This document shows, in pieces, positions 7,184 to 49,475 of a stretch of 64,000 nucleotides of DNA. Within the stretch, counting starts at the first letter, position 1. The number at the start of each line of letters is the position of its first letter. This stretch comes from a virus (Duplodnaviria > Caudoviricetes), in IMG/VR virus record IMGVR_UViG_3300028805_000089, positions 24,718 through 88,717 of that record; one strand, 5' to 3'. The notes under the pieces were generated by a model, which saw only the letters and a list, made by a program, of their open reading frames with translations, was not told the DNA's origin and did not search any database. A program made the position numbers and the translations under genes.

Positions 7184-7255
7184 GGGCATATAGCACAGAG
7201 GTAAGTGCGGTGGCCTTATAAGCCATTCATCATGGTTCGACTCCATGTATGCCTA
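7184..7255 (+). tRNA. tRNA-Ile(UAU)
   Basis: GGGCATA/TATGCCT acceptor, GCAC/GTGC D stem, GTGGC-CT TAT AA-GCCAT anticodon arm, CATGG-TTCGACT-CCATG T arm. Confidence 0.85.
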
Positions 7256-7258
7256 TCC

Positions 7259-7339
7259 GCCAACGTAGCGCAACCGGCAGCGCATCGGCCCTGTAATCCG
7301 GACCGGAGGTTGCGGGTTCAACTCCCGCCGTTGGCTCCA
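7259..7339 (+). tRNA. tRNA-Thr(UGU), atypical (C33, enlarged variable loop)
   Basis: GCCAACG/CGTTGGC acceptor, encoded CCA, anticodon loop CC TGT AA, GCGGG-TTCAACT-CCCGC T arm. Confidence 0.7.
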
Positions 7340-7414
7340 GCCAGCATAGTTCAGCGGCAGAACATCGGTTTTGTAAACAGGGTGTCGTGGGTTCAAATCC
7401 CTCTGCTGGCTCCA
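7340..7414 (+). tRNA. tRNA-Thr(UGU)
   Basis: GCCAGCA/TGCTGGC acceptor, loop TT TGT AA, encoded CCA; one anticodon-stem and one T-stem mismatch. Confidence 0.75.
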
Positions 7415-10308: not shown

Positions 10309-10644
10309 TCAGTCCTCAAAATCCCCGTATACTTCCATCGTGCTGTCGGCGCTGGCGTTGACAACCTTCACGTAATTCACCCCGCCCATCGGGACCTTGT
10401 AAAGCCCCGCCACGCTGATGCTGTCGTCAACGCTGCCGTCCAGCAGATTGATAGGGGAGTCGAACCACACCCCGTTAACGGGATCATTCCCGGTATGTAC
10501 CTTCACGGTCAGGCTTGGTATCCCGTCGCTGAGTACCGTCAGGTATAGCGCCCTCGCGCCCATCTCGTTCTTCACGGGGCCGCCGTCCGTCAGGCCGCTT
10601 CCCTTCTTAATAAATTCCGCGCTCTGTACTCTCACCCGGATCAC
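10309..10644 (-). CDS. hypothetical protein, last gene of the late operon
   Basis: GTG overlaps the upstream TGA; 111 aa. Confidence 0.7.
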   Translation of the reverse strand: MIRVRVQSAEFIKKGSGLTDGGPVKNEMGARALYLTVLSDGIPSLTVKVHTGNDPVNGVWFDSPINLLDGSVDDSISVAGLYKVPMGGVNYVKVVNASADSTMEVYGDFED

Positions 10645-10910
10645 TCCTCTTCTTTCTTCTCTTCCTCTTCACCGTCATTGCCGACATAAACATCGCCCTC
10701 ATAGAAATCCCCGCCCGCGCTGGCGGCGTCGGTGAGTCCTTCCCCGATGATGTACGCGACAACCTACGCTCCGGCCATGATAATGCCGCTGATCTGCGTC
10801 ACGGTCTGCTCGTCCATGTGCAGGGCCAGCAGCAGCCCGCTCACAAATCCCACGATTGCCATCCAGAATTTCCTGCTCGTCAGTTTGCTTACCCAGTCGA
10901 TGTTCCTCAT
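10641..10910 (-). CDS. holin, 89 aa, with one in-frame TAG (codon 49)
   Basis: MRNIDWVSKLTSRKFW...IMAGA*VVAYIIGEGLTDAA; frame continues to TGA. Confidence 0.85.
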
Positions 10911-12664: not shown

Positions 12665-14776
12665 TCAATACCTCCACTTCAGTTTGATGAATGCCCTCGC
12701 AGAAGCCGTTGCGTAAACCACCTTGCCGATGGCCGCGTCCGGGTCGTTCACTTTCGCCAGTTTGCAGTCCGCGTCCAGGCCGATGTAATCCCCTATGGAC
12801 AGCCCTGTCAGGCCGGCCCTGTCGGCCGCGATATACCCACGCGTCTGGATGTATGTGTCGCTGGCGGTCTGGTACGCGACGACGCCGTACACTTTGTCCA
12901 GGGCTGTGGCTTTCTGCCAGTCCTGACCGCTCCGCAGGTTGTAATACTCCACGGCGGTCCCTACGGGCAGGGAGTTTTTGACCGCGCACTGCACGTCCGC
13001 GGTGTTATAGTAAGTCGCCGGCGACGTGTTGTACATCGGCGAACTCCCGCCGCAGCCCATGATCACGATATGCGGATACGTCTGATCGGCGCCAGGGTCT
13101 TTCGATGCCGACAGTATCGTAAAATCGCAGTTGTCGAACACATACACCACCACGTCGTCCGGGTCGGTCGTCTCCAGGTAGTCGTACATGCTGAAGTTGT
13201 ACCCCTTGCAGTTGTACAGGTACACCCTCGGAAGGTTGGGCAGTGAAGGCCGCGTGTGCAGCCCGCCGAGATGGCCGAAATCAACATTATAAAATTCATA
13301 TTCCATACCACACTGGGCGATCCCGGCCCCGTATGTGTGCGGAGGATTGTAGGACATCGCGCCATACGCCCGGAGGACGATGTTTTTCATGGTCCTGTGC
13401 AAAACTTTCCCGATCGGGCAGTGGAAATCGTCGTGGATGCAGTACCGGATGTTCTCCGCGAGGATCGTCAGGTTTTCGATCCCGCCTCCGCCCTGGAGGT
13501 TCAGAGTGCTGATTGCGTTCCGTACATCACTCGAATAATCGGTGGTGTTCAGAGACGCTGTCAGGATGATCTCCTCCGGCTTGCCCATGCCGATCAGGCT
13601 CATTCCGTTGAGCAGTTTCGGCCCCACGAATCCGGTCTGGTTGAAATACGCTGCCTGGATCTCCTCCTCGGTATAGTCTTCCAGCACGTCATACGTCCCC
13701 GGATAGATCTCGATGCGGTACGGGTTCAGCACATCGTTGGCGCTTGTCCCGATCGCGTCCAGCGCGTCTCTAAGATTTGTGTAATCCCCTGTGCCGTCTT
13801 TTTTGATGCTGACCACGGTCGGCCTGATCGGCACATCCCCGAGAACGCTGACCTCGAACGTGACGGTCCGACCGTTGTTGATCGCCCCCGCGGCATATAC
13901 CGCGCTAATGCTTTCCGCGTCCTCGGTCAGGGTGTATTCGTACCACGAACAGTCGCACCTTGCGGAAACAATGGTTGTATTGTCGTGCTTGTATGTGATG
14001 TTTACCCCGTCTTCCCACGGCATTGCCCCGCGCTCAATGTGGAGCACCAGCCGATCTCCCGCTTTGAAATTTCGCGTGATGGTCAGCGTCAGCCCCTGGC
14101 CGCTCGCGGCGGTCCCGCGCACGGAATAAGTCACGTACTTCCTGCCGTCAAATACCTTGGTCACGATCCCGCCGTCGGCGAAACGCCCGAGCACATGCCC
14201 GTATGGATCCACGATGTCCAAGTCGGTCCCCGTGGCCTCGCTGTCCTTGATCAGGTCGGCGCTGTTAAAATTTTTCGTGACAATATGCCCGTTTTCTAAC
14301 CTGACAATCACGTTCCCGGAAGGGTCTGTAATGTCCAGGTCTGCCGTCCCGTCGCTATCAAGCACGCTTGGAATCTTGTTATTTATTTTATACGTTGCAT
14401 CATCAGTTGCGCTCTTTAAGTCACTAACCTCCCCGCCCACGTTCACTTGCGTCCAATGGCCGGATGTCCATGCTTCGCCCGACGCGATTGCCGTCGTACA
14501 TCTGTAAAGCAGCCCGTTGTGGATAACGTAATCGCCGACGGCATATGATGCGCTGGCAGAGTACGTCGGCGCAAAGTTCGCCACGGTATCCGTAAAATCC
14601 TGCGGAAGCGACTCCGTCAAACTCTGCGCCCTGTCGGCTGCTTCAGCCGCGATCTGTGCGTTCTCCTATGCGTTCCCGATTGCTTCAGCCCACTCGGCCT
14701 TGCTCCCGGTGTACCCTTCCTGCACCGCAATGGCATACGCGGATATCGGGCCGATTACTTTCGTCTGTGTTGCCAT
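12665..14776 (-). CDS. tail appendage / receptor-binding protein, 703 aa, with a CBM-like repeat and a pectinesterase-like beta-helix; TAG at codon 37
   Basis: ATG 14776 MATQTKVIGPISAY...GNA*ENAQ continues in frame into the 651 aa ORF; KKDGTGDYTNLRDALDAI...IYPGTY. Confidence 0.8.
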
Positions 14777-14780
14777 CTCT

Positions 14781-16346
14781 TCATCCCTCCATGTTTGCCA
14801 TACGCGCATCCGCGATGGCGCGGTCCATCTGTTCCAGCGTCCTGTGCAGTTCAGCGCTTACGTCTTCAAGCCTGCGAAGGATTTCTTCCATGCCGCCCTT
14901 GATATCATCGTCGCCGCCGCTTTCGCCCTTCTTCCCTTCGTCCCCGCCGATGCCAAGTTCCTTCTCGATCTCGTTCCACGTAAGCTAACCCACGATTCCG
15001 TCGGCCTTCAGCCCGTGATTCACCTGGAACTTCTTCACGGCCAAATCCGTCTGCGTCCCGAATATCCCGTCCGGTCTCCCGCAGTCATATCCAAGCTGGT
15101 TCAGCCACTCCTGCAGTTGCTTCACCGCGTCGCCGTTGCTGCCCTTCTTTACCGTTACCATCAGGATCACCTTTCCCGCTTCCGCGATTTCTTCCGGCGT
15201 GTAAAGTCCTTTCGGTATCCCGTAGTTCGTCCAGGATGTGTCGCTCAAGCTTCCGTACTTAACCCCGCCGTTCCCGGTGCAATGGATGATAACGCCGTCC
15301 CCGATGTGGATTCCCGTGTGCGAATAATTTTTGTTCGCGGAGTTGTACTTAAAAAGGCAGCACACCACATTCGGCATCCCGGCGGTCTTACCGCGCTGTT
15401 CCCAGTTTCTCGGCGTTTCATACTGCGTCGTGCATCCCTCGCCGTAAAGGTCAATGCCAGCGCCATGCTCCATCACATAATGCGTAAACCCCCGGCAGTC
15501 GTAGCATTGATGCCCCTGCCACTTACACCCGTCGCAGGTCTTCTGCTTGTTCTACAGCACCGGGCATTCCCCGTAGATTTTGCTCTTATACTCCGGGCGA
15601 TAACCGGCGTATTTCTTCCGCGTCTCCGGGGTGCATTCCTGCCCCCACGCGCCAAAGACATACGGGTCGCCGATTTTGCTTTCAGCCAGTTCTACCACAT
15701 CCCGCGCCTTATCGTTTAACAACACTTTATCCGTCACATGCACCGCCTCCCTCAGTACCAGTCCTCCGTAGTTGTCCATCACGGCACATCCCGGATAATA
15801 AAACGCCAGAATGTCCCTGTACCAAATCCCGTGCTTCGCGGCCACCCGCGCACCGCGCTGGCTCATGCCCACGCCGTGTCCGTACTTTTTGTGTCCGTCC
15901 TCCCTGTCCCATGGGTCTTCCTGCTCGATCAGGTAGGGATAATCCCCGCCCCACCGTTCCTTGGACGAAGTCGTTCTCCCGCCGTTGTTCGCGCTGAAGT
16001 GGGCGACGGCAATGCCGCCGCCGTACATCAGCACCTCGCCTTTGGTATCCATCGCGGCACGGTACGATATGGGATATTTCCCATAATCACACCGCGCCGC
16101 CCGGTATGCCATCGTGGTCTATGCGTCGTCGCTCACCGCCAGCCCCCGCAGCGCCCCTCTGGATATCGCCAGACTCCGCGCCGCAACGGCCTGCGCTTTG
16201 CACGCTTCCATGCCGGACTCCCCGATTTCGGACGCGGTCACCGCCGCGACGTATTCCTCAAAGTCCACGTTTACCGTATCCCCGATATTCACCCCGAAGA
16301 ATTCCGCGTTCTCCCTTTGCGTTATTCTTACCGTTATCTCAGGCAT
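14781..16346 (-). CDS. endolysin-like cell-wall hydrolase, 521 aa: SpoIID/LytB + NlpC/P60 + peptidoglycan-binding domain; 3 TAGs
   Basis: EAQAVAARS, YGHGVGMSQRGA, IGDPYVFG...DCRGF, HTGIHIG, DGIVG*LTW; TAGs at 16119, 15552 and 14985 are all in one frame. Confidence 0.85.
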
Positions 16347-16435
16347 TGTCCGTCTCCTTATGCATTTAATAGGGGAGAAGCAGAAGTGACCCTGCCCCTC
16401 CCCCTTGGCAGGGAGTTGGTTACTTAAAGCCTCCG

Positions 16436-18493
16436 TCAATTGTTCAACGCCCTCGGCGAGTTGTATCTCGCAAACATCCACTGCCGCCCCTGGCTGATCA
16501 ATCTCCTGATCTCATGTGTCCAGTATTCCGCCACGACCAGATTGCCGCCCGTGCCAAAGTGAAGTCCGTCATACGGATGGAGCCATGTGTGGTTTGTTGG
16601 CGTCGCACCGTCATGCGAAAATTCGCCCGTGAATTCAGCGACGCCCACCACGTTCATCGGATAAAGGGCGGCGATCTGGTGGATCACGTTATTCGTAACG
16701 TCCACATCGCCGTTTGATGCCCACACCGTGCCAAGATAGATCCGCGCCGTGTTTTTCTGTGAAATAATTTTTGAGATGATCTTGCAATAATATCCGGTTT
16801 CGGTTTCGGCGAAATCATTATAATTGGTGTACGGAGTGACATCGGTTGATAGCGTATCGGTTAGTCCGTTGTTCGTCCCAAGCCATATAATAAAATCCTT
16901 ATACTGGCTGTATGTATAGGAATCGCTATACTCGGTATACCAGTTTGATGCGGAGTACCCGCTTTTCCCGGCGTTCGTTACGGTTGCCCCCGTGAATTTT
17001 GCCAGAAATTGCGGATACGATACGTCCGTATGCGGAGGATTGCCGTTGCCGTGCCAATAGGATTCAGTCAGGCTGTCACCAATGCACAGAACGTTTTGAA
17101 GATAATATTCGTATCTCGGTTCAAGCCGGTCAATGATTGTTCCTGAGGTAACGGAATTGTCAAGGTATGCGCTCTTAACGGTATACCGATATGACGCAGG
17201 GAGATAGATTTTTGTGGATGACGTTGTCATCTCGCTGGCCCGGAAATATTTCGCGCCGCTCGGCACGATGATCGTGGTCAGGCAGTCAAGCTGTTTGTTC
17301 CACTGGTTCGTTGCTCCGGATATATAGGTCCGGTCGGCATCATAAAACGCGATCCCGGCGGCATCCCTATACCCGCACTGCAGTTTCATCGTGTCTGTAT
17401 GGATCGGCAGGAAATCCGTATAGTTGAAATTGACGCTGTCCGTAAGTTCGCCTGTGCTCGCAACAACGTATTTGCCGGCTTTCCACAGCACGGGCATCTC
17501 AAACCACCTGTCGTATTTTTCATCCGTGCTTCCGTTCATTGCGGCGTATACGTCCTCGGCGGCAGTATAATACACCGTTACCACGCCAAGCGTCTTTGAG
17601 CATGATATCACGATGTATTCGGCGTTAGCAGGGATCGTCGGCACGATCAGGTATGCATCCGTATATGTCCCGGTAAAACCGTCAAGATAACCCAAATCAG
17701 CATCATAAAAAGAAACGCCCGCAGAGTTGTTGTTAAGTTTGGTACGGAACCCGATCAGGTTTTTCACAGGCAGGAATGTCGTTGTGTAATAGGATGTATT
17801 GGTTGCCGCCACCCCGGTGGAATAATCCCTGTACCTGTTCTGTATCAGTGTCGGCGTATATGCCACTGCCGTGTCGATATTATCAATCGCGCTCTTTAAG
17901 TCATCAACATCCCCCGCCAGAGCATCGGTCACCGTCTTGATTCCTGCGCTCGTTACGGGGTTGCTGCTGCCTGCGGTCGGCGTGGAGTCAAACGTCAGTT
18001 TGTCCTGTTTCCCCGTTTCCAAATCGCTGATTTGTGTACTGTGAAAGTCAACGGTCATCTGGTCGGCAGCCTGGATATTGTTTCTGGCAGCGCTCCTTTG
18101 GGCCGAAGTCAGGTTCTGGGTTTCATGCCACACGGCCTTTGAAAGGTCCTCGCCGACGCTCACCTGTACCCAATGCGCGGGTGTCCACGCTTCTGCCGTC
18201 GTGATTTTAGTAGTACACCTGTAAAGCGATCCGTAGTGGATTACATAAGCGCCGACCGCGTATGTCGAGCTGGTGGAATATGTCGGTGCAAAGTTTGCAA
18301 TCGTATCCGTAAAATCATCAGGCAGCGACTCTGTCAGGTTCTACACCCTGTCTGCCGCAGCTTCTGCTGCCGCCGCGTTCGCCTACGCGTTGCCAATTTC
18401 CGCAGCCCATTCGGACTTACTGCCGGTGTATCCTTCCTGCACCGCAATGGCATACGCTGAAATAGGTCCGATCACTTTTGTCTGTGTCGCCAT
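16436..18493 (-). CDS. tail appendage with SGNH/GDSL esterase domain, 685 aa; TAGs at codons 37 and 51
   Basis: N-terminal module paralogous to 12665-14776; CIGDSLT, WLGTNN, DGLH motifs. Confidence 0.8.
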
Positions 18494-18549
18494 TTTCATT
18501 CCTCCTCATTTCATCAAACAGGGGACGGTTCTCCGTTCCCCGTCCTCCG

Positions 18550-20402: not shown

Positions 20403-22064
20403 TCAAATATTATACGTCACGGTCAGCGTGCATCCCGCCCGCATGAATGTAAAGAATTCGGTCGGGCTGTTCATGCCCACGGCAAATCCTTTAATCGTCC
20501 CGTTCTGAAGCAGATAAAACTTTTCGGGCGGGAATTCAAACGTCCCGGTTTCTCCGGGCGCGATATACTGCATCGGCGCTCCGACGGACAAATACCAGTC
20601 TCCGCTCTGCTATGAATAACTCCACGGGTCGCAGGATCCGGCGTAATTATGTATCGTCGCCGCCGTCAGGTTGTGATAATACGGCCTGATAACAACGCCG
20701 CTGCTGCTCCCGCCGCTGCTTGTCCTTTTGATGCTCACCGTCGCCTTGGTTATCGTGGCCCCGGCCAGCGTCTGCGCAATCGTATCCGCGTCGTCAAACA
20801 GCCAAAGACCGGCCATATATTTTTTGCTCCCGCTGTTGTATCCCATTCTTGGATTGTTCGTTCCGTCGCCGCGCCATCCGATGGCCTTTCCAAGGTACGC
20901 CTCCGTGCCGGTCTTGGAACTCTCGGTAAAGTATCCGCTGCTGCTTGTCCATGTGCTGGTCACCTCGGTCACGGCGGGCGGTGCTTCTCCGCCGCTCGTC
21001 ACCTTGGTCACCGTACCGGAGCATGTGAACGGATAACCGTTGCTCTCATACCCCGTCCCGGCGGAATCTGTCCCGGCGGGAATCGTTCCCTTCGCGTTCA
21101 CATATCCGCCGTCGGGGCTGATGACTACGCCGTTCACAAGGTTCGCAAGCGTCGTTTCGTCCGTGCTGAACGCGCCGCCAGCGCAGTCAACGATATCGGC
21201 ATGCGCATGTTCCACATAGATCGCCGCGCCCGTCCGGTCGATCAGGCATCCGTCGATAAAGGCGTAGCTGCCGTCCCTCACATAAACGCCGTATGCCTGC
21301 CCGTCGTCCCCGGCCTCGCGTTCTACGCCGTGGATTTCAATGCCGCTCACCTTCACGAATCCGTTTCCGCGCAGGTCAACCACCGCGTCCTCCAGCACGC
21401 CCATGAACTGCGTCGTGTCCGTCCCGTCGGTATCGCCCGTGATGTTTACCCTGTTGTTCCCGGATATCACCCAGTCGCCCTTCACCACGGCAGCCTTGTC
21501 AAGGTTCAGCGTCAGCGTCCCGTTCCCGCTGAACCCGGAGATATCCACGTCCTCGACGTATGTCCCTTCAGGTACGGCGATGACCACATCCCCGGTCAGG
21601 TGCTTTCCAAGCCCGTCGATCACATCCTGTATTTTGCCGTTTACCGTCGCGGTCTTCGCACCCTGTATATTGATAATGTCGCCGCCGATATGCCCGTCAA
21701 CCGAGAGGTTGTCAAGCACAAGGCTTACGCCGTTTTCGTCGGCTGAAATAAAAGTCTTTTTCCAGCTTCCGCTGTTCACAGCGCAGGCGTTCCCAAGCCC
21801 GTAAGCCCATTCCACCCACACGCTTTCACCCGGCTGCGCGTTGTAAAGGTCCGGCACAAACGGCACGTCGAACGGCTCTCCGAACGCCTCCCGCACGGTC
21901 AGGACCACGTTTCCGTTTTCGTCTTCATGCGCTCCCTGTACAACGTACATTTTTTTCCTGCGCACAAAGTCCGTGGAATATTCCTTCAGGATATCCGTCA
22001 CAACGTTTTCGATGCCGTTCAGCATCATTTTGTTTTCGACGATTCTGTTTCTTCCGTTATCCAT
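20403..22064 (-). CDS. minor tail protein, 553 aa; TAG at codon 485
   Basis: WSYS*QSGDWYL continues in frame to TGA 20403. Confidence 0.7.
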
Positions 22065-23853
22065 TTTGCTCGTCCGCCTTTATCACGGTCTCGACCTTCA
22101 GTTTGCCCTCGCTGTCAATCTCAAGGTCTGCTGGAACATATTCCATGCTGTTGTCATACACCTGCTCAAGCTGACCGCCGTCGCTCATCTGAATCTCGCT
22201 GCCGACGTACCCATCGTCGTTCATCGTCCACGTCACATATCCGTCCTGATCTACGCTGATAGCCGTCGCCGTGTCGATTATGTCGTCGCCCCGCGCCATC
22301 AACCCGTCCGTCAATAGACTTACGATCTGGCAGTCCTTCGCGTCCCCGACCTCGACCCACGGAATCTCTATCTGCACGGGCTGTTCCGCGTATTTGTCCT
22401 GCGTCTCTTTCACGATGGCGTCGCTTATCTCTATCATCCGCAGGTTGCCCTTCCGGTCCCGCAGGAACTTGACGGTATTCCGCGTGCTCATGTCCATCAG
22501 ATCATCGACCATCTGCACGCTGTCCCTGAACTGCGTATCCTTCACGCCGCCGACCCACGCCCGCAGCTTTCCGCTCAGTCCTTTCCGTCCCACCTTCTGC
22601 ACGGTTGGGTAGGGGGTAAAGTTGTTCTCCACATACGGCGTGTTCTCATTGCTTATGCTACCGCTGTCCACGTTCGCCTGAAACTGGTGTACGCACTTTA
22701 CATGGTACAGGGTATTGTATATCGTTATATATTGTATCTCTTCTTCGTATGCACCGGCAATCGGGAATTTCATGTATTCCGTGTTGGCGGGAGTTGCTTC
22801 TATTATTGCCCAGTTCCAGTAATAGCGCATTTTCATTGGTCTTTCGGATGTCAGCGTGTATCCTTCGTAGTTCGTCGCGGCATAATAAGCTTTGTAAATA
22901 TACTCGGTATTATTGCACGCGCCGAAGTCATACATCTCCGTTTGACCGGGCGGGATCAGTCCAGCCTTTTCCACGGCGTTTGTCTGTGTGTTTATCCGGT
23001 AAATGTCCCATCCCTTTTGCGGCTGCGGCACTTCGTATCCTTCGTCCGCGCTTATCCGCAGGAAAAACGCCGGGTTATCCCGCACATAATAAACTTCCAG
23101 ATGGACCCCTTCCAGCGGCGTCTCAGGCCACGCGACGGTAAAGTCTTCCCAGTCGGTCTGCGCTGTAATCCCGTTTTCAAACGTACCGGTAAGCTGTATG
23201 GAATAATTCGTATGGTTTTTCATCAAACCATAGAAAACAAACGGGGCGCGTGACGCGTATATGTCGCCCGTGTCTTTTAATATCTCATGCTCCGAATCCT
23301 ATTTTGCCAGTTTCCATCTGTATGATATCAGCGGGTTGCCAGGTTGTTCGTCTGATATAAGTCCGCCGAAATAAGCGCAGCGTCCCTGATATAAATATCC
23401 GTTTGGTATCGTAAATGTCGGCCTTTTGCTTGTCAAAAAAAACACGGGACTGATATTGACAAGTCGTTTGAATACAAAGTCTGTACTATCGACATAAAAC
23501 TGGTCTATGCGAAGTTTATAACCGTATTGATAACCGTTGACGATACCGGCGTTTGCAAGGTCTGCTGCCGTGATCGTGTCCTAAAACGGAACGGGATTCC
23601 CGCGTTCGTCCTTGCCGTATATAGGCATTTCATACACTCTTTCGGAGCCGGGTATGTGATAATACTTCGCCCTCACTTCGCTTCTGTATACTTCTGTACT
23701 TTCCGGCGTGTTTTCCAGAATAAAGAACTGCCACGAAACCATCGGCTGCGTCCCGTTAATCTGCCACGTCACCGTCATATCCTGTGTCGCGTCTATAACG
23801 CCCGTCCCGTTAAGCTATGACGGCGTAATGACGGTCGGTTGATAAAGCCCCAT
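22057..23853 (-). CDS. tail tip (distal tail-like) protein, 598 aa; TAGs at codons 13, 91, 185
   Basis: MGLYQPTVITPS*LNG...PVPF*DTI...LAK*DSE; single frame read through to TAA; AAGGAGG RBS. Confidence 0.75.
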
Positions 23854-27200: not shown

Positions 27201-30200
27201 GCTGTCGCCATTCCGCTGTTGTTGATAAGCTTTCTGAGATACTCCCAATCCGCGTCGTTTCCGGATGCGTCTTTGATTGCCGTGATTTTACCTTCGACCA
27301 TTTCAAGGGAACCGCCTGCGGCCTCGGCGGCCGCCTGCATTCTCGCAAGCATTTTGTCGGCTCCCTCGGCATTCCCGTTCAGACGCATCTGGTCAAGATA
27401 CGCGTTCATGGACGCGACCTGCTCGGTCACGTTTTCATATCCGCTTACGTCAACGGGCAGTCCAAGCGCTTCCGGTGTACTTTCGGCGGCGATCTGCGCG
27501 GCGTTTGAGAGTTCTTCCCGGACGGTCTGCGCGTCTTCCGCAGCATGCTCCGTGGCGTCTTCCATTTTTTCGGTGTAATCGGCGTAATTTTGCCATCCGC
27601 CCTCAACGTCAGGAACACCTTGTATCTCGACTTCGCCGATTTCGTTCAGCAGATAAAGCCATTCCTTCATCTGCATCCACTCGGATGAACCCATTCCGGA
27701 ATTCTCGGCGAACGCAAGCAGCTTGTCATAATCTATTGTCAGCAGACCTTCTTCTGTTTCAGCCGCAAACCCGGCTGCCTTGCCCATTTCCTTCAGTTGT
27801 GCCGTGAAATTTTTTACGTCCGATTCAAGGTCGCCGTATACGCCCAGGGCCTTGATGGCATCCCATGTCTGATCGATACTGAGATGAGTCGCCTCGGCAA
27901 GCCCCTGCAAATCAGAAACGGTAAACTCTATTTGCCCGTTTACTTCTTTGTAGGACGCGACGACTTTGTCATTCAGCTTGATCTCGCCCGTCTTCTTGTC
28001 GGCGATTTTTGCAAGCACGGCAAGGAATCCCTCGCCGTAAGTCTTTTCCGCGTCGCCGTACATTGTTTTGTACGGTCCGTTTGCCATGAACGCGTTGACG
28101 CCCTTATAACCTTTTTCGCGGTACAGCGTATCGAAATCCGTCCCGCTCCCGGCCATCAAATATCGCGCCGCAGCCATTGCTTTCTGGCTGTTCACGCGTC
28201 CCGCCTCGATCTCCTCGGCGTATGTCGCGTATGCGCTCTGGTAATCCGCGAATCCTTTATTTTCCGCGTCGCGTTCCATTGCGGCGTCAAAGGCCGTCTT
28301 GGCTTTTGTCGCGGCGCTTAATGCGGCTGTAAGTTTGTTTACGCTTGCGGCTGCTTTATCGGTACTATTTGCCATTCCGGCGGCACCATCGAATTCGGTA
28401 ATCCTTAACCATTCTTTATATACTTGCGGATACCTCTACGCAAATAATTCGAGAAACGCTGTTCTTATATATTTGGCATAACCCGGATAATTGTTTTCGT
28501 CAATTGTATTGAATAGCGTTTCCATTTCTCTTGCATATTCGCGCAGCGTATCTATATCTACATCTCCACCGGAATTAATAATGCCTTGTAAATTCTCCAG
28601 TTTAACCCAGTTTGGATTATCTATCTACATTAGGGAATTTGCCGCCGAATCAACATAGGCGTTTAATGCTGTTGACGCTCTTTCGTATGCGTCACTCGCG
28701 TCATCTAAATACTCAACGATTCGTGAGTAGCTTGGAACATCTGTCGCCTTAATATGATTGTCTAAGGCGTATTGCTCTATTTTAGCTTTTAAAAGCTTTA
28801 CAGATTCGTACTGCTCATAAAGTTCTTTTGCATCAAGTCTCCAATAATCAGTTAACCACGCGGTATAAGATGGTTGATTCGTTCCCTATGGTGTAATAAT
28901 ATTGGCAATTTCTTCTCTGAAACCATCGAAAAGCTCTTTTAATTCATCTGTGTCGCCAAAGAAAAAACGATATGTCTTTGGCGTAAGTGGAACAGACATA
29001 ACAGAAGTGCGGTTAAATTCATCAAGAGCGCCCTTGGCCGCCGCTTCGGCTGCCTTTATTTGCTCTTTTGTCATTTGACGAATTTCGTCTCCCGCAGCTA
29101 TCGCTTGATCTCTCGTTAGGCCAAGTGCGTCCGCCAATGCATAAAGTGCGGTGGTATACTCTTCCGTTCCTTCTTTGGCGGTTAAAAAATTGGCGTAAAG
29201 AGTCATTGTTTCAGTACTGTTTTGATTTGCTTTTTGTCCTGCTGCTACGGCGGCTTTTGCCTGTTTTTCAACATTCGCATTGTAATCCTGCAAAAGTTTA
29301 TTTGCAACGCTTATTGCAACACCAGCAGCGGTCACAGCAAGTCCAAACCCTCGAATGTTTCCTGTCATGCCGGTGACCCAATTTGTATCTCTTCCGGTAA
29401 ATCCAGCCCATAACGTTGCAATTCTTTGTGCTTTCAATGCCGTTACCAATCCAAGTACGATGGTTAGTGCATTTGCTAAATTGCCGACAGCTTGAACTGT
29501 GCCGTTTAACAAATCGAGAACGCCCTTGATCATTCCGGTAGAAACCGTATTATTGACCAGCGCGACCCAGCTTGCCTTCAATCGTTCCGTCTTGACGGTG
29601 ATGGAATCCAAAGAGTTTTGTACCTCCCGGTCGATACTCCCGCTGGCACCTTCGTAGGTCTTCAGCATGCTCTCGTACATGTCCCAGTTCTTGATGAGTA
29701 CCATCAACTGGTTTGTGCGCAGCTTGCCGCCGATATCGCTGACCATGCTGAACAGTTTCGCCTCGGTCAGGATGCCCTGCTGATAGGATTTTGCCAACGC
29801 CCCGATGGCCTCCATCGGGTCGATCAGCGTTCCGGTCGCTTCGGCGGCGCGTACCACTTCGGGCGCGTACAGTTCCAGCACCTGGCGAAGTCCTTCTATT
29901 TCGCCTGCCGTCCATTTCGCGCCGTCCTCGATCTCCGTGGTCGTGTCGCCCATGATGTTCAGGAAAATTGCGCGGAGGGCGGTCGCCGCTTCGGTGCCGC
30001 TCCTCTGCGTAACGGCGGTAACGGTGCCAAGGGCGGCGGTCAGTTCGTTGATGCCTACGTGCGCGGTGGAAGCGATGGTCGCCAGTTTACCGATACCGGC
30101 GCTGATCTCTGCCACGTTCGTGGCGTATTCGTTGCCGATCTGGTTCGCGCCGTCCATCGCGGCGGTCAGGGCCTGGATGTTGCCGTTCAGCCCGTAAGCC

Positions 30201-31486: not shown

Positions 31487-32557
31487 TCAGGCGGTAACGA
31501 CCACGTTGGCCACAACACTCAGGTCGCCGTTTTCCACGGTGATCTCCGTGTTACCGGCGGCCGCGCCGGTCAGCACGCCCTTGTCGGAAACGGTCGCCTT
31601 GGAAGTGTCGGTCACGGTGTAGGTCAGGTCGCTGTAGTCCGGCTGCACCAGGCTGTCGTCGGCCATGACGTACTTCACGGGGACCTGCACGGACTGCGAG
31701 GCGGCAACGGTCACGACGCCGCCGACGATGGCCATGCCCTTCACGTCCACCAGAGCGCCGCCCACGGGCATATCCACCATGTAAGCAAGGGCAAAGGACG
31801 CTTCGTCCACGCAGATGCCCTCGGCGGCAGCCTCTTCATAAGGCAGAGCGGAACCGGACAGGGTGTCAACATCAGCGTCGGTCTGGTCGCCCTTCACAGG
31901 CGCTTCGCCCTTGAACTGCATCCTCGGAATCCAGATGTAGCGGTCGCCCCACTTGGTGCCCTTGGTGCTGCCCTGGCCCTGAGTGGTGTACAGCGGCATA
32001 CGGATCATGCAGATTTCGATGTTGGGTTCAAACACGCTGTCAACGCGCAGCTGATGGGCACTGGCGGCGCGGACGAAGTACCGCACGCAGTAGGTCTCGC
32101 CGACCACGGGAACGAAGTCCTACACGGCCTTGGTAGTGGGATCGATTTCGAAAGCGACGCCGCTCTTGTCCACGAAACCGTAAATCTTGTCGGTTCCGTA
32201 GGGAGCCACGGGGGTCTGACTCACGATCAGCGCGGTCGCGCCGGAAGCGACGGTAATGGTCTCCAGTACGGGGATGATTCCGTTGTAGCTGAGTTCGCCG
32301 CCGACGGACAAGGCACGGCTCTCCAGGGTGGAGGTCGCGGCGGTGATTTCCAGTTCCAGCTTGGCGCTGTCAGGCAGGTTCAACAGGACGGGGTTCCGCA
32401 GGGAGCCGTTGATCTCGCCCATGTTGGTGCTGGTTGTCAGACTGTTGGTCTGGATTTTGTTGGAATAGAAATCCAGGTTGAAAGTGGACGGGTTGAAAAG
32501 CCAAACGTCCATAGTGCCTTTCGCATAAATGGGAGTACTGTTGGTTGCGTAAGCCAT
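31487..32557 (-). CDS. major tail protein copy B with C-terminal Ig-like domain, 356 aa; TAG at codon 146
   Basis: TKAV*DFVPVVGETY; highly similar to 32575-33666. Confidence 0.8.
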
Positions 32558-32574
32558 AATCTTACATCTCCTCT

Positions 32575-33666
32575 TTAATCATTTGTAACATAAACAACAA
32601 GCGGCGCGAAATACGTTTCACCGTTCACGGTAATTCGCGCATCAACGTGTCCCATACCGGGACCTACGGCCATGAATATGCCGCTTTTTTCAAGCTGTCT
32701 TCCGGACGTCACAACAGTAGTCGGCCCGATATCGTACCTAAACAAACTGTAATCCGGTTGGGCCAGCGTTCCGTCCTTCATTACATATTTAAGCGGAACG
32801 GTTGCAGACTGGCCGACTTTCATTTCCATATATCCGCCAACCATTACGATGCCTTCAAAATCGGCCCACGGTCCGGCTGCAGGCATGTCTACCATATACG
32901 CCAGCGCGAAGGACGCTTCGTCCACGCATACACCTTCGGCAGCCGCTTCCTCATAGGGAAGGGCGCTTCCGGACAGCGTGTCCACATCGGCGTCGGTCTG
33001 GTCGCCTTTCACGGGCGCTTCACCCTTGAACTGCATCCGGGGAATCCAGATATACCGGTCTCCCCATTTCGTACCCTGTGTGCTTCCCTGTCCCTGGGTC
33101 GTATACAGCGGCATCCTTATCATGCATATCTCAATATTCGGCTCAAACACCGAATCGATACGCAATTGATGTGCGCTTGCGGCCTTCACAAAGTACCGCA
33201 CACAATAAGTTTCACCGGCAGTCGCGGCGAAGTTTTTCACCTTCCGTGTGTCCGCGTCGATCTCGTAGGCGATGCCGCTCTTGTCCACAAATCCGTACAC
33301 CGTGTCCGTGCCATAAGGCGCGACAGGGGTCTGACTTACGGTCAAATCAGCGCCGGACGCCGTAACGGTTTCCAGCACGGGAATAATCCCGTTATACGTC
33401 AGTTCTCCGCCCACGCTCAATGCGCGGCTCTCAAGCGTCGATGTGGCTGCGGTAATCTCCAGTTCCAGTTTCGCGCTGTCCGGAAGGTTCAGCAGAACAG
33501 GGTTTCTCAGCTAACCGTTGATCTCTCCCATATTGGTCGAGGTCGTCAGGCTGTTCGTCTGCACCTTGTTGCTGTAAAAGTCAAGGTTGAACGTGGCCGG
33601 GTTAAACAGCCACACGTCCATCGTTCCCTTGGCATAAACAGGCGGGCTGTTTGTCGCGTAAGCCAT
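32575..33666 (-). CDS. major tail protein copy A, 363 aa; TAG at codon 52
   Basis: GEING*LRNPVLL aligns with GEINGSLRNPVLL in copy B. Confidence 0.8.
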
Positions 33667-35094: not shown

Positions 35095-36453
35095 TCAATA
35101 CCCGTACACGTTCACCGTCACGGTCTTTTCCATTCCGTGCGATGCAGCGCTTACGGTAATTTCACCCGGCAGGAATCCGGTAACCGTTATCCGGTTCCCG
35201 TCCTGCTCCCATGACGCCGCGTTCATGTCCCATGTCCTCACGGTATATTCAACGGCTTCTTCGGTCTTCACGCCGCCGACAAACCACGCGGCCTCCAGAG
35301 TAACACTCTGGTATTGTGCGCATTTCTCGGCCTTCTGCAGCCATTCAAGCCCTTCGATGATTTCCCCGTCCACCGTGATTGCGGCCTCGCAGGTTATCTT
35401 TTCGTTCTCCTCAAGTGTAGCGCGGATGACGCATTCGCCCTCGCCGACGGTCGTAATAACACCGTCTCCGTTTACCGTCGCCACGTTCTCGTCCGTGCTT
35501 TCATACCGCCATGTCAGCGGATATTCTCCCAGCCGTTCCACTCCTCCGTCAGCGGTCGTTCCGTAGGTCACGCCGTCAATGATGGATAGTATCTGGCCGT
35601 TTCGCACGGTCTCGATCCCGGTCTGATAAGTTTTGCCGGGAATCGCTTTTGCGGGAACGCCCGTAAACGAGGCGTGCATGTCAAAACTTTTTCCGTCGGC
35701 CACCCTGTTCTCCAGGTCGTCGCTTTCGATGGGTTCCTGGCTCTGCAAGTCGAAATACAGGATATGCGTGGAATCCGCGTTCCCTGTCTCGCTCTGCAAA
35801 AAGTCGATCAGGCCCCTCACCATATAAGCCATCGTCCCAAGGATCATCCGGCGGTTCGTCAGCAGGTCCTTCGTATCCTCGTTCAGCTGCATCACGCATT
35901 TCTGGTAAAGGTTCGGGGATACGATGTAGTCCATATATTCGTTTGCGCTGGCCTGGCTCTGGTTCTTCGCCCAGTAAAACGGCTCTTCCTTGATGTTGCC
36001 GTAAAAGTCCAGCCGCCGCCATGTCACGTTGCACCTTCTGCACACCGCAGTCGCCTGCGCTCCGTTCGCTTCGTCCGGGTTCTACACGATGTATGTATCC
36101 CCGTTCACTTCGATCTTCGCGCCAAGCCCCACGGCGTTGATCTTTGAACTTTCAAACTTTATCTTTTTCCAGTCCTCAATGATATTGGTGGTCGTGCCGT
36201 GCCTTACCATGACCTACATACGAATCCGCGTCCTGAACCATTTATAAAAATCGTCCTCGTCGATACCCTGGACCCGCGCCATGTACATATCCTACGCGTA
36301 TTTCAGATTCCTGTTGTTGTAATCCGATGTGTTCCGCGTGAACCCGTACTACCTCTGCAGCCCTTCGTTTTCGGAAGGGGATTTCACCCCGGCGCGTTTT
36401 CTGTACGGCACCATGCTCTTCGCGTTGCCTATCCTTTTCTCTATCCCTTCCAC
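35095..36453 (-). CDS. neck / head-closure-like protein with Ig-like C-terminus, 452 aa; TAGs at codons 35, 54, 80, 124
   Basis: AAGGAGG RBS, GTG 36453; LQR*YG, KYA*DM, IRM*VM, YIV*NP all in frame with the 316 aa ORF. Confidence 0.78.
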
Positions 36454-36566: not shown

Positions 36567-37265
36567 TCAAACCGGAGGTTTAAATTTCTTCCCGCTCGGC
36601 AGCGTCTCCATTGCCGCCAGCCCCTGCTCAAAGCTGACCAACGCGCTGTTCAGTTGCCCGTAAATCGTCTTCAGCCTTTCCGTTCCCTTGGCGATCCAGT
36701 TGCTCTCGTTGCCCACGTCAAAGCTGTCGTCCTTTATCTTCGGCGTCCTCGGGAGAAAGTCGTTGTTGAACCTCCGCTCCCATACGTACTGTACGCACAG
36801 TCCCAGAATGTTCTTCATTTCGTCCGTCAGGTCGTTCTCAAAATACCCGTCGGTATAGAAATCGAACTGCACGCTCCTGCCGCCCTCCACTACCTGGTTC
36901 ACGGTTACGCTCCCGGTCTCCGGGTCGTATGTGATATCAAGCGGCACATACACCGGCGTACCAAGGTCGTCTTCTTCGATCACCCCGGCGCTGCATATTT
37001 CAAACCCCGTGATTCCCGTCTCGATCACGTCGCCCTAATCCAGCATCGTGGTCGTTTCGATTTCCGTATCCTCCCAGTCCGGGTCCGTGTGGGCAAGCCA
37101 TGTTTTCGCCTCCGGTGGCCGGTTGAACATCGGTATTCCGTTCTTCATGTACAGCGCCATCTTCCTGAAGAATCCGGCGGGGTTCTCGTCCATCTCGTCC
37201 TGAAGACGCACGTCTTCTTGCTGCACCATAAAATAGTCGCAGATGATCTCCGTATATGCTGTCAT
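36567..37265 (-). CDS. head-tail connector-like protein, 232 aa; TAG at codon 77
   Basis: TTMLD*GDVIETG joins two ORFs in frame. Confidence 0.7.
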
Positions 37266-37282: not shown

Positions 37283-37954
37283 TCACACGCTCGGCGTATG
37301 CGGGGGAGTGTCGCTGTCCCCGTATGTCACGCCGAATATCACTCTTCGTCCGATGTTCTGCGCGGAGTCCATAATATTCTCGGACCCCGTTTCCGAAAGC
37401 TGCTGACGGTCTATATAAAACGTGCCGATGCCGTCGATGTTCACGCCGCTCAAGCATTCCCACAGGCATTGCTCAATGGCCACGCACCTGGACTGCGCAA
37501 GCGTCTTTGTGTTCGTGTCCATCTGCATGTTCGACAATATGTCGAATATGATGCCAATCTGCACGATGTTTTGGTTCAGCGGCTTGATGTTCCCGATAAA
37601 ACACTTCAGTATCGTCTGCCCCCGCGTCTGCGCCTGCGGCACGTAGCTTACCGGGTAGATCCGATATCCCCTGTCCGTCGGCATGATGTCCGGCTTGTCC
37701 GTATCGAAAACCAGCTTCAGCTTTTCGGCGGGGGAGGGGATGGGATTATCCAATGGATTCGGTCCGTCGTAATACAGATACTTCATCAGCCTGCATCGCG
37801 GATAGGTATTGTCGTCCGGCGGGGTGTACCCCGGCAGCGGCAAATCCATAATGTAATCCAGAATCAGTTTCGGCAGCGTATCCAGGTGGTTCATCCACGC
37901 CGTATTGATTACCCGTTCATACGGATAAGTTGCGCTCCGCCTGTCGGTGTTCAT
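37283..37954 (-). CDS. putative neck / tail terminator protein
   Basis: 223 aa; position in the head-tail region. Confidence 0.55.
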   Translation of the reverse strand: MNTDRRSATYPYERVINTAWMNHLDTLPKLILDYIMDLPLPGYTPPDDNTYPRCRLMKYLYYDGPNPLDNPIPSPAEKLKLVFDTDKPDIMPTDRGYRIYPVSYVPQAQTRGQTILKCFIGNIKPLNQNIVQIGIIFDILSNMQMDTNTKTLAQSRCVAIEQCLWECLSGVNIDGIGTFYIDRQQLSETGSENIMDSAQNIGRRVIFGVTYGDSDTPPHTPSV

Positions 37955-46041: not shown

Positions 46042-47853
46042 TCACCGTTGAGCGTTCCCACCCCGGTATCCAAGCCCGCGTCCCCTCGTGTCCAGGTGCT
46101 TCATCCCGCCTTTACGCTCAAACTCTTCTTCCCATTCTCCCCGGCGCTCAAAGTCCATCGCCAGTTCCTGGTACTCCAGTTTGCTTGCCCACCGGCAGGC
46201 GTACTTGAATGCCGACCACATATCCCTCTGGATATGGTTGCTCACGCGCTGCTCCTTGATGGTCACGCCCATCGGCTTTTTCACGAGGTTGGCTATCTGT
46301 TCGCACATCTCTTTCGTCTTGATGTACGGTATGGCGATGCTTGCGTTCAGATCATCGTCCTTGATCCGGTGGGCCTGCTTGTATGCCGCCACGCCGTCGT
46401 ACACGTTCTGCGTCAGCAGCCGCATGTTCCCGTGTTCAAACTCGATCTCCATATACCGCACCATCTCGGCGTCCGGGTCATGCGTCCCGGTCACGCCGCC
46501 CTGGCCCGTGGCCTTGATGGCGTATATCACAGGCAGCGCCCCGTTCCTCTCAAGTTCTGGGAACTCATGGTTCACCGTGCATAGGGGAGGGAGTCCGTCT
46601 CCCAAATCCTTGTGCAAATCCTCAAGCACTCCCTTGCCGTATTGCCAGGAGTCGATGGCGATGTACACCCGGCTGCCGCCTGCGGCGTAACGCCTGAAGG
46701 TTTCCTTCAGTTGCCGCGCCTGCATCATTGCTTCCCTCGGCGGGGGATTGTCGAAAACATACACAAGGCTTTTCTTGTATCTGTCTGTCCGGAACGCGCC
46801 CTTCTGTTTCTCCAGCTTCACGACCGCCGTCGCGCACATGGCGTTTTTCGCCCCGTCCACGTAGCTTACGTCGTACCCGATAACGTATATAACGTCCGGC
46901 TTGCCGCATCCCCGGTCTTCCATCACCGAAAGGTCGCTGCTTTCGTGCAGTACGCTGTCCCGGATGATGGGATTCTCGGTCGATCCCGTCCAGACACATT
47001 CCATTTCACGCGTCCATTCCTCCGGGGTCAGGTTCTTCTTCTGCGTCTTGTACCATTTGATATCGCGGACGCCCAGCAGCACGGCGACGATCCCTGGCCA
47101 GGATATCGAAAAGGCGCTCCCGCCTTCCCTCTGCATCTTTACGATGCTCTCCCGCACCGCATACGCTTCGTTCGTCTTCCTCTAAGGGTTCGTAACGTAG
47201 TGATGCTGTACCTGGGGGAAGAAGGGGTCCCGCTCCTTGTTCACCTTCCGCACGATACGGATGGCGGGGGAGATGACCTTGCGGTAATTCTCATGGTTAA
47301 ATTTGTTCCCGGCCTCCTCCTGCGCAAACTCCTCGTTCGTCACGCCGCTGGCGTTCAGGCCACGGAAGTTCTCGCAGGAAAACAGGCTGCCGAATTTCGT
47401 GTTCAGGATGAACCGCGCTTCGGTGTTGGAGGATACCGTAAAATACTTGCACAGTTCCGGGTAGTTCTGCTGTACCGTCGTCCACGCGTCGCTGATGATA
47501 AGCGCCGTCTGTTTCATGCTCGGCCCGTAATACTGCAGCTTGATCCCCGGATACAGTATCATCATCACCAGGTTTGCAAGGAAATGGCTGTAACTCTTCA
47601 GCGTGCCGCGCCCGCCGTCGATGAATGTATCGCTGTACCGGCATACCGCCCGGATATTCACCCTTGCGATGATCTACAGCCCGTACATCGCGTTCGGACT
47701 TTCAAACATATCCAGAAACTTGTCCGGATACCAGCGCCAGTAGCTGATAAGCAGGCCCCATTCGTTCGGAAGCAGGTCAACGTCCCTGTCCCGGACGGTC
47801 TTCTTCTCTTCCCATTTCCTTTTGCTTTTGTTGTAATGCACCCTGAAAGGCAT
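46042..47853 (-). CDS. terL: terminase large subunit, 603 aa; TAGs at codons 60 and 224
   Basis: RWYPDKFLD, GGRGTLKS (Walker A-like), GVTNEE (Walker B-like), YVTNP*RK, GYDVS nuclease motif, RDMWSAFKY. Confidence 0.88.
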
Positions 47854-49080: not shown

Positions 49081-49108
49081 CTTCGTCTCCCCGTAACCTC
49101 GTAAACAG

Positions 49109-49181
49109 CGGGAAATGCCGGACTCGAACCAACAGCCATCGCGTTAACAGCGCGCCGCTCTCCCAATTGAGCTAATTTCCC
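49109..49181 (-). tRNA. tRNA-Asn(GUU)
   Basis: GGGAAAT/ATTTCCC acceptor, GCTC/GAGC D stem, GCGCG-CT GTT AA-CGCGA arm, TTCGAGT T loop. Confidence 0.88.
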
Positions 49182-49388
49182 GTATCCATCCTGCTAACCG
49201 GAAGGTGATTCCCGGTCTGTCATTCCTTTTCCCTTCCGTAACCTCGGACCGCGCCTTTCCCTTTCTCCCGTGGCCTCGGATGCTGACAAAGCATGTGTAC
49301 CATCGTTCGTCCGTTGATGACGCTGTTGATTATTTATCTTCGTCCAAAACTCCACTCTTCACTCTCCACTCTTCACTCTTTTAAAAAG

Positions 49389-49475
49389 CGGAGGCACAGG
49401 GATTTGAACCCCGGGGGGCTTTTACACCCCTGCGGTTTTAGAGACCGCCGCATTCAACCGCTCTGCCATGCCTCC
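49389..49475 (-). tRNA. amber suppressor tRNA-Ser(CUA)
   Basis: GGAGGCA/TGCCTCC acceptor, G73, Ser-type D arm GCAGAGCGGTTGAATGC, perfect stem GCGGT-CT CTA AA-ACCGC, long variable arm, CGGGG-TTCAAAT-CCCTG. Confidence 0.93.

Follow-up and report, generated by a model that had tools for sequence, protein, structure and literature searches.

The phage analysed here very probably reads the amber codon TAG as serine, an assignment inferred from nucleotide sequence without protein or aminoacylation data. We make it because three kinds of evidence are taken together: a paralogous gene that carries a serine codon opposite a TAG, a tRNA with anticodon CUA, and the residues that face the other TAG codons of the genome in its relatives. 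The window, that is, the whole stretch of 64,000 nucleotides under analysis, corresponds to bases 24718-88717 of a single virus record of 88.7 kb. The phage has SPbeta-like virion genes, and its relatives are prophage-like loci in draft genomes of gut Clostridia of the Oscillospiraceae type, with related loci of this kind present in those of Flavonifractor plautii and Flintibacter muris. The features on which the argument rests are collected in Table 1.

Table 1. Tube genes, TAG codons and tRNA genes discussed in the text (positions are those of the window)
Feature	Position	Strand	Remarks
Holin-like gene 10641-10910, TAG, codon 49	10764-10766	minus	Relatives Ser (TCT, TCG)
Gene 22057-23853, TAG, codon 13	23815-23817	minus	Ser in 4/4 close standard-code relatives (TCG, TCG, TCC, TCA)
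Tail tube protein paralog B, 356 aa	31487-32557	minus	C-terminal Big_2 Ig-like domain
Copy B, in-frame TAG, codon 146	32120-32122	minus	Variable column, K/Q/I/E/L/V/S in relatives
Copy B, TCC, Ser52, opposite the copy-A TAG	32402-32404	minus	Codon alignment
Tail tube protein paralog A, 363 aa	32575-33666	minus	One in-frame TAG read through
Copy A, in-frame TAG, codon 52	33511-33513	minus	Aligned to TCC of copy B
Gene 35095-36453, TAG, codon 124	36082-36084	minus	Close relatives: Ser (AGC) 3/4, Ala 1/4
Gene 35095-36453, TAG, codon 80	36214-36216	minus	Ser in 3/4 close relatives
Gene 35095-36453, TAG, codon 35 (contrary site)	36349-36351	minus	Gln (CAG) in 4/4 close standard-code relatives
Large terminase, TAG, codon 224	47182-47184	minus	Ser (TCG) in close relatives
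Large terminase, TAG, codon 60	47674-47676	minus	Ser (TCG, AGC) in close relatives; variable in distant homologs
tRNA-Asn(GUU), neighbour of the suppressor	49108-49181	minus	Kept with the suppressor in recoded relatives
tRNA(CUA), serine-type amber suppressor	49388-49475	minus	ARAGORN; Rfam tRNA 56 bits

The paired tail tube genes and their codon 52

Two late genes in tandem, here called copies A and B, are each interrupted by a single TAG and by nothing else. Copy A has the ribosome-binding site AAGGAG ahead of its ATG and copy B likewise has one upstream; residues 272-345 of copy B match PF02368 (Big_2), and copy A ends in a different C-terminal domain. The assignment of both to the SPbeta-type tail tube family (PF27173; structures 8ygm and 9jgi) is based on the Pfam matches of their homologs and on fold. 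Precomputed matches place PF27173 YomU_Tube on most homologs of the two copies, and a local Pfam search with copies A and B themselves matched the tube family in neither. An AlphaFold model of the copy-A ortholog P0003 (mean pLDDT 76.5) had as its top Foldseek matches the tail tubes 8ygm, 9jgi, 8xkn and 7t4f (from phage SPR, lambda and others), with probabilities of 0.99-1.0 but low TM-scores of 0.2-0.4, and the solved tubes share only 13-16% sequence identity with the tube proteins of the window. The tube gene lies between the head-tail connector genes and the chaperone and tape measure genes, and the gene order in relatives runs from tube through YomN to tape measure. Unlike the SPbeta-type tube, the window gene is tandem-duplicated, with differing C-terminal decoration domains; such duplicates are also seen in the related loci L035, L019 and L031, while the gene is single in L021, L023 and L036.

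The translations and the codon alignment bear out the claim of the preliminary description that the TAG of copy A and a TCC serine codon of copy B both occupy codon 52, within a flank identical for more than 30 residues. The identical stretch in fact extends over 53 residues (codons 36-51 and 53-89, 100% identical at the protein level) and is bounded by residue 35, which is Val in copy A and Ile in copy B. The same description had called the paralogs near-identical, and this holds locally around codon 52 but not overall, BLASTP giving 80% identity over 322 amino acids; it was also right that the second TAG of the pair, at 32120 in copy B, faces AAA (Lys) of copy A in a variable column. Synonymous divergence reaches a pS of 0.68 in the 53 identical flanking codons and 0.77, which is saturated, over the whole genes. 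Because a pS of 0.68 is itself near saturation, the identity of the flank is due to selection rather than to recent copying, and since selection has held the flank constant for so long, the residue facing the TAG is informative. We infer from these codon comparisons that copies A and B are old duplicates under strong purifying selection.

A search of a large protein collection with the tube protein yielded 106 relatives; column 52, counted in 100 homologs, contained Ser in 39, Gly in 60, Ala in one and Gln in none. Of the 40 clusters that make up the close subfamily with the same local motif, 39 have Ser. The preliminary description would have lost its case had position 52 proved highly variable with frequent Gln, and the column is not variable in this sense. 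In the P0003 model, residue 52 falls in a low-confidence loop (residues 49-55), and no structural reason for a serine there was found.

At the codon level, orthologous or single tube genes carry at position 52 TCG (L019), TCT (L021, L023, L036), TCC (L035) or TAG (L031, L096). The copy-A ortholog of L019, itself a recoded relative, is very close to the window gene, with a dS of only 0.06 over codons 1-51, so that the TCG/TAG difference at codon 52 is a single-base difference between very close genes. In L031, a recoded relative at a dS of about 1, the TAG is retained, as it is in L096, which represents a third lineage; TAG52 has thus been kept in three lineages (window, L031, L096) between which synonymous change is saturated. 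Ser lies opposite 60-64% of the genuine Ser codons in these alignments and opposite 4-5% of the genuine Gln codons, and the site at 33511 alone gives a likelihood ratio of about 13 for Ser over Gln, before its perfect flanks are counted.

The tRNA with anticodon CUA

The 88.7-kb genome encodes five tRNAs, one of which has the anticodon CUA and is the only reader of TAG. Its gene lies at the head of the late operon, just upstream of the gene in the small-terminase position and of the large terminase gene. The tRNA fits the Rfam tRNA model over its whole length, with a 7-bp acceptor stem and a 5-bp T stem, and its variable region has a 16-nt insertion relative to that model, forming a G/C stem of 4-5 bp, that is, a long variable arm. 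This covariance-model alignment was used in place of single-sequence folding, whose minimum-energy structure was not a cloverleaf and was uninformative. Pyrrolysine was discarded as the amino acid, 'tRNA-Pyl' being merely the default name that ARAGORN gives to a CUA anticodon and the body being a class II serine one. The early region also carries a tRNA cluster at 7184-7414 (plus strand) with tRNA-Ile(UAU) and two tRNA-Thr(UGU), one of the latter, 81 nt in total, having a variable region of unusual length.

Every full-length best BLAST match of tRNA(CUA) in 5,426 E. coli genomes and GenBank phages is annotated as tRNA-Ser. We additionally compared it with 16 class II tRNAs of Flintibacter muris and Flavonifractor plautii (8 Ser, 7 Leu and 1 Tyr), and it proved to be 61-68% identical to the host-type tRNA-Ser(UGA), with a D arm and an anticodon stem that are almost the same, against 34-53% for tRNA-Leu and tRNA-Tyr. 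In these two related host genomes G73 is found in all eight tRNA-Ser, as in tRNA(CUA), whereas all seven tRNA-Leu and the tRNA-Tyr have A73. The acceptor stem (G1-C72, G2-C71, A3-U70) is also of the serine type, and the loop of the variable arm contains no CUG or UUG motif resembling a glutamine anticodon. SerRS recognizes its tRNAs by the long variable arm, G73 and the acceptor stem and does not read the anticodon. The host SerRS should then charge tRNA(CUA) with serine, a charging inferred from these identity rules and for which there are no aminoacylation data.

G73 is the discriminator base of tRNA-Gln as well, and a glnS match scoring far over the cut-off shows GlnRS to be present in each of the two related host genomes. 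Because of these two facts some charging with glutamine cannot be excluded, and the argument that TAG must be serine since the hosts lack GlnRS was ruled out.

The suppressor is conserved among the recoded relatives, both of those in which the region was read (L044 and L045) having an orthologous tRNA(CUA) followed by tRNA-Asn. In L044 a compensatory change from G-C to A-U leaves the stem of the variable arm paired. The standard-code relatives L039 and L042 have no tRNA in the same region. The 3' CCA is encoded in the suppressor gene of L044 (1319-1406) and is missing from that of the window, where G73-C is followed by a run of T; the window tRNA(CUA) would need CCA addition.

TAG codons across the late genes

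The 31 late-operon genes examined contain 28 in-frame TAGs among 12,209 codons, distributed over 15 of the genes, and all of them end in TGA (21) or TAA (10), never in TAG. If TAG is serine, it accounts for about 4% of all Ser codons in this set. These genes were translated with TAG as X and compared by tblastn with all fetched loci, the DNA of relatives having been extended along contigs by exact-protein look-ups, and the residue facing each TAG was recorded.

The sites that have well-aligned flanks and on which the four close standard-code relatives agree face mostly Ser, as at 23815, 33511, 36214, 36082, 47674, 47182 and 10764 (Table 1). The TAG at 23815 is kept in both recoded relatives, and the column of terminase codon 224 consists, in a deep alignment of 120 homologs, of Gly (111) and Ser (7). 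In the reverse direction, conserved Ser at window positions 37532 and 25055 stands opposite TAGs of a recoded relative (relative F, L031 contig). Other residues face TAG at a minority of these sites, with Thr at 23581 (and at 25919 in the reverse direction), Ala at 23299 and Pro at 37035. The contrary site is 36349, where several distant relatives have Gln too and all three recoded genomes have TAG. Because of this TAG at a conserved Gln, the code call rests on the sum of the sites and not on column 52 alone.

Several sites were of little use. The TAGs at 28886, 28625 and 28436 lie in poorly aligned regions of the tape measure. The tail-fibre-like genes 12665-14809 and 16436-18499 (both minus strand) are 74% identical over their N-terminal 119 residues and then diverge completely, with a TAG at the same aligned codon in both (14666 and 18383). 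The preliminary description had set a further TAG, at 18341, against a CAG of the paralog; it does face Gln in the tail-fibre paralog 12665-14809, among neighbours that differ, and the codon itself is known only from that reading. The endolysin-like gene 14781-16481 (minus strand), a lysis enzyme whose combination of SpoIID, NlpC/P60 and PG_binding_1 domains is unusual, is interrupted by three TAGs, for which no alignable close relative was found; solved SpoIID structures cover only one of them, codon 121, which faces Val or Lys in a variable stretch.

Other observations were made along the way. A TAG in L019 and L044 (relative E) faces position 29522 of the window, codon 395 of the tape measure, where the window and most aligned relatives have Gly (GGN) and three relatives have Asn or Asp; TAG and GGC differ there at all three bases, which, judged from the codons, is not a simple one-step change. 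Outside the window, at 13220-14374 of the 88.7-kb genome, a long early-region open reading frame ends at a TAG and has its next in-frame stop 30 codons further on, so in early genes TAG may still stop translation or give a short extension. One recoded relative has an insertion after the major capsid gene (PF27364 YonB) that comprises a gene resembling a GIY-YIG/NUMOD homing endonuclease and an HTH partner (L031 1547-2781; L045 11260-12494), absent at that place in the window.

We next express the whole set as a likelihood, estimating substitution frequencies from the same alignments and computing the probability of the TAG columns under each of the 20 amino acids. When each of 20 TAG sites was given a single vote, Ser ranked first, with Thr trailing by 15.4 nats and Gln by 22.2, and Ser was best in 97% of 2000 bootstraps over sites. 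When only close relatives were used, with all observations (43, from 18 sites), Ser led Thr by 29 nats and Gln by 57. TAG sites face Ser in 40% of cases, compared with 60% for ordinary Ser codons, a shortfall to be anticipated if many TAGs originated in other codons through the change of one base. The comparison draws on a small set of mutually related, hence not independent, relatives, and the alignment was unreliable at several TAG sites (tape measure, endolysin). Within these limits, the original proposal that the paralog column serves as an internal control in favour of serine is supported by homologs, orthologs, the tRNA and the 20-site likelihood.

With one well-conserved Gln site among sites that are mostly Ser, Thr, Ala or Gly, and with GlnRS in the related hosts, decoding could be ambiguous, the tRNA being charged mainly with serine and partly with glutamine or another amino acid, so that a mixture of proteins is made at each TAG. 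Mischarging by E. coli GlnRS is indeed classic for amber suppressors that combine a CUA anticodon with G73. We consider such a mixture unlikely, given that wild-type supD inserts serine and requires changes in its acceptor stem to accept glutamine, that the acceptor stem of the phage tRNA is of the serine type at its first three pairs, and that a single CAG-to-TAG change with a tolerated replacement of Gln by Ser explains 36349 more simply. Minor insertion of glutamine at TAG is not excluded.

A uniform reading as glutamine (code 15), with the serine of the paralog as a coincidental substitution, has precedent on its side, no other amber reassignment having been reported for phages (10.1101/2021.08.26.457843; PMC9523058). 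It would agree with the conserved Gln at 36349, with the Gln that faces 18341 in the paralog and 32120 in several relatives, and with the GlnRS of the related hosts. It leaves unexplained the absence of Gln from all 100 homologs at tube column 52, the position of terminase codon 224 in a column of Gly and Ser only, the Ser that faces the terminase TAGs in close relatives, and a class II serine tRNA body whose extra arm lacks a glutamine-anticodon-like loop; with a likelihood that falls short of that of serine by 22 nats when each site votes once and by 57 nats when all observations count, we regard it as very improbable.

Scarcely tenable, finally, is the view that copy A is a dead duplicate in which the TAG at 33511 is a true stop, the tube protein being made from copy B only: a second, intact-looking tube gene does adjoin and one tube gene does suffice in some relatives (L021, L023, L036), but the 311 codons past the TAG stay open with a dN/dS of 0.17-0.35 against orthologs, the same TAG persists in three lineages across saturated synonymous change, and in-frame TAGs also occur in copy B and in 13 other late genes, including terminase and tape measure. 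Because of the constraint after the TAG and its retention in three lineages, we take copy A, as far as its codons can tell, to be a full-length gene under selection, and the non-expressed pseudogene that the preliminary description had left possible, for which no support was found, to be excluded for practical purposes.

A probable serine route to amber recoding

In the reading of TAG as serine, the codon would have turned from a stop into a sense codon in the late genes of the phage. SerRS, ignoring the anticodon, would charge tRNA(CUA) with serine, as inferred from tRNA identity rules, and at TAG the ribosome would insert Ser while release factor 1 competes for the codon. Tube copy A would then be made full-length with Ser at residue 52, the residue that paralog B encodes by TCC, and TCG and TAG, one base apart, would act as synonymous alternatives within the clade (TCG in L019; TAG in the window, L031 and L096). 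By analogy with the published model for recoded phages, structural, packaging and lysis proteins would be completed only once the suppressor has been made, which would constitute a form of gating. At 36349, an old change from CAG to TAG would, in the simplest reading, have led to the tolerated replacement of Gln by Ser mentioned above.

The whole clade, with SPbeta-like virion genes and associated with gut Clostridia, probably uses TAG as serine by means of a captured tRNA-Ser(CUA). Its standard-code sister phages are about 80% identical in the terminase, and because sisters this close exist, the reassignment is likely to be visible in progress, in TCG/TAG swaps and in the change from CAG to TAG as a replacement of Gln by Ser.

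Serine amber suppressors are familiar from the laboratory, namely supD (serU) of E. coli and the serine suppressor psu1+ of T4. Like the window tRNA, these are tRNA-Ser with the anticodon turned to CUA, SerRS ignoring the anticodon and TCG and TAG being one base apart. They differ in being laboratory mutants that act on rare nonsense mutations, whereas the window tRNA is a conserved wild-type gene, clade-wide, that serves about 28 sense TAGs in essential genes. Among natural tRNAs, the allo-tRNAs with serine identity (8/4 and 9/3) also carry serine identity elements, and one of them, given a CUA anticodon, inserted Ser at amber codons in E. coli (PMC5389517). The window tRNA is not an allo-tRNA, as it fits the standard Rfam model end to end, and it has the CUA anticodon naturally and in a recoded genome.

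The closest natural parallel in organization is with the code-15 gut phages (crAss-like, Lak, Garnet), which share with the window a concentration of in-frame TAGs in the late genes for structure, packaging and lysis, a suppressor tRNA borne by the phage, standard-code sisters, and related standard-code prophage-like loci in draft genomes of ordinary bacteria. The window differs in that the inferred amino acid is Ser and not Gln and that the suppressor is a class II serine tRNA. In crAss-like phages TAG as Gln has been confirmed by proteomics (PMC9523058), and a survey preprint found only TAG-to-Gln and TGA-to-Trp where the codes of phage and host differ (10.1101/2021.08.26.457843). None of the NCBI code tables (as included in Biopython) assigns TAG to Ser, and a full-text search of the literature, which did not cover subscription journals, found no natural phage with TAG as Ser. 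Stop-codon recoding with a phage suppressor tRNA is thus already well described, and what differs here is serine as the inferred amino acid.

Phage gene callers and annotation pipelines take amber recoding to mean TAG as Gln, which in this clade would put the wrong residue at every TAG, roughly 28 sites in the virion, packaging and lysis genes covered by the analysis. For genetic-code engineering, a small serine amber suppressor that evolved naturally has practical interest as well. The recoded and standard-code sisters, side by side, form a natural system for studying the capture of a stop codon. As SerRS disregards the anticodon, the serine route should work in almost any host, and its mechanistic simplicity predicts that phages reading TAG as Ser are more widespread than is recognised.
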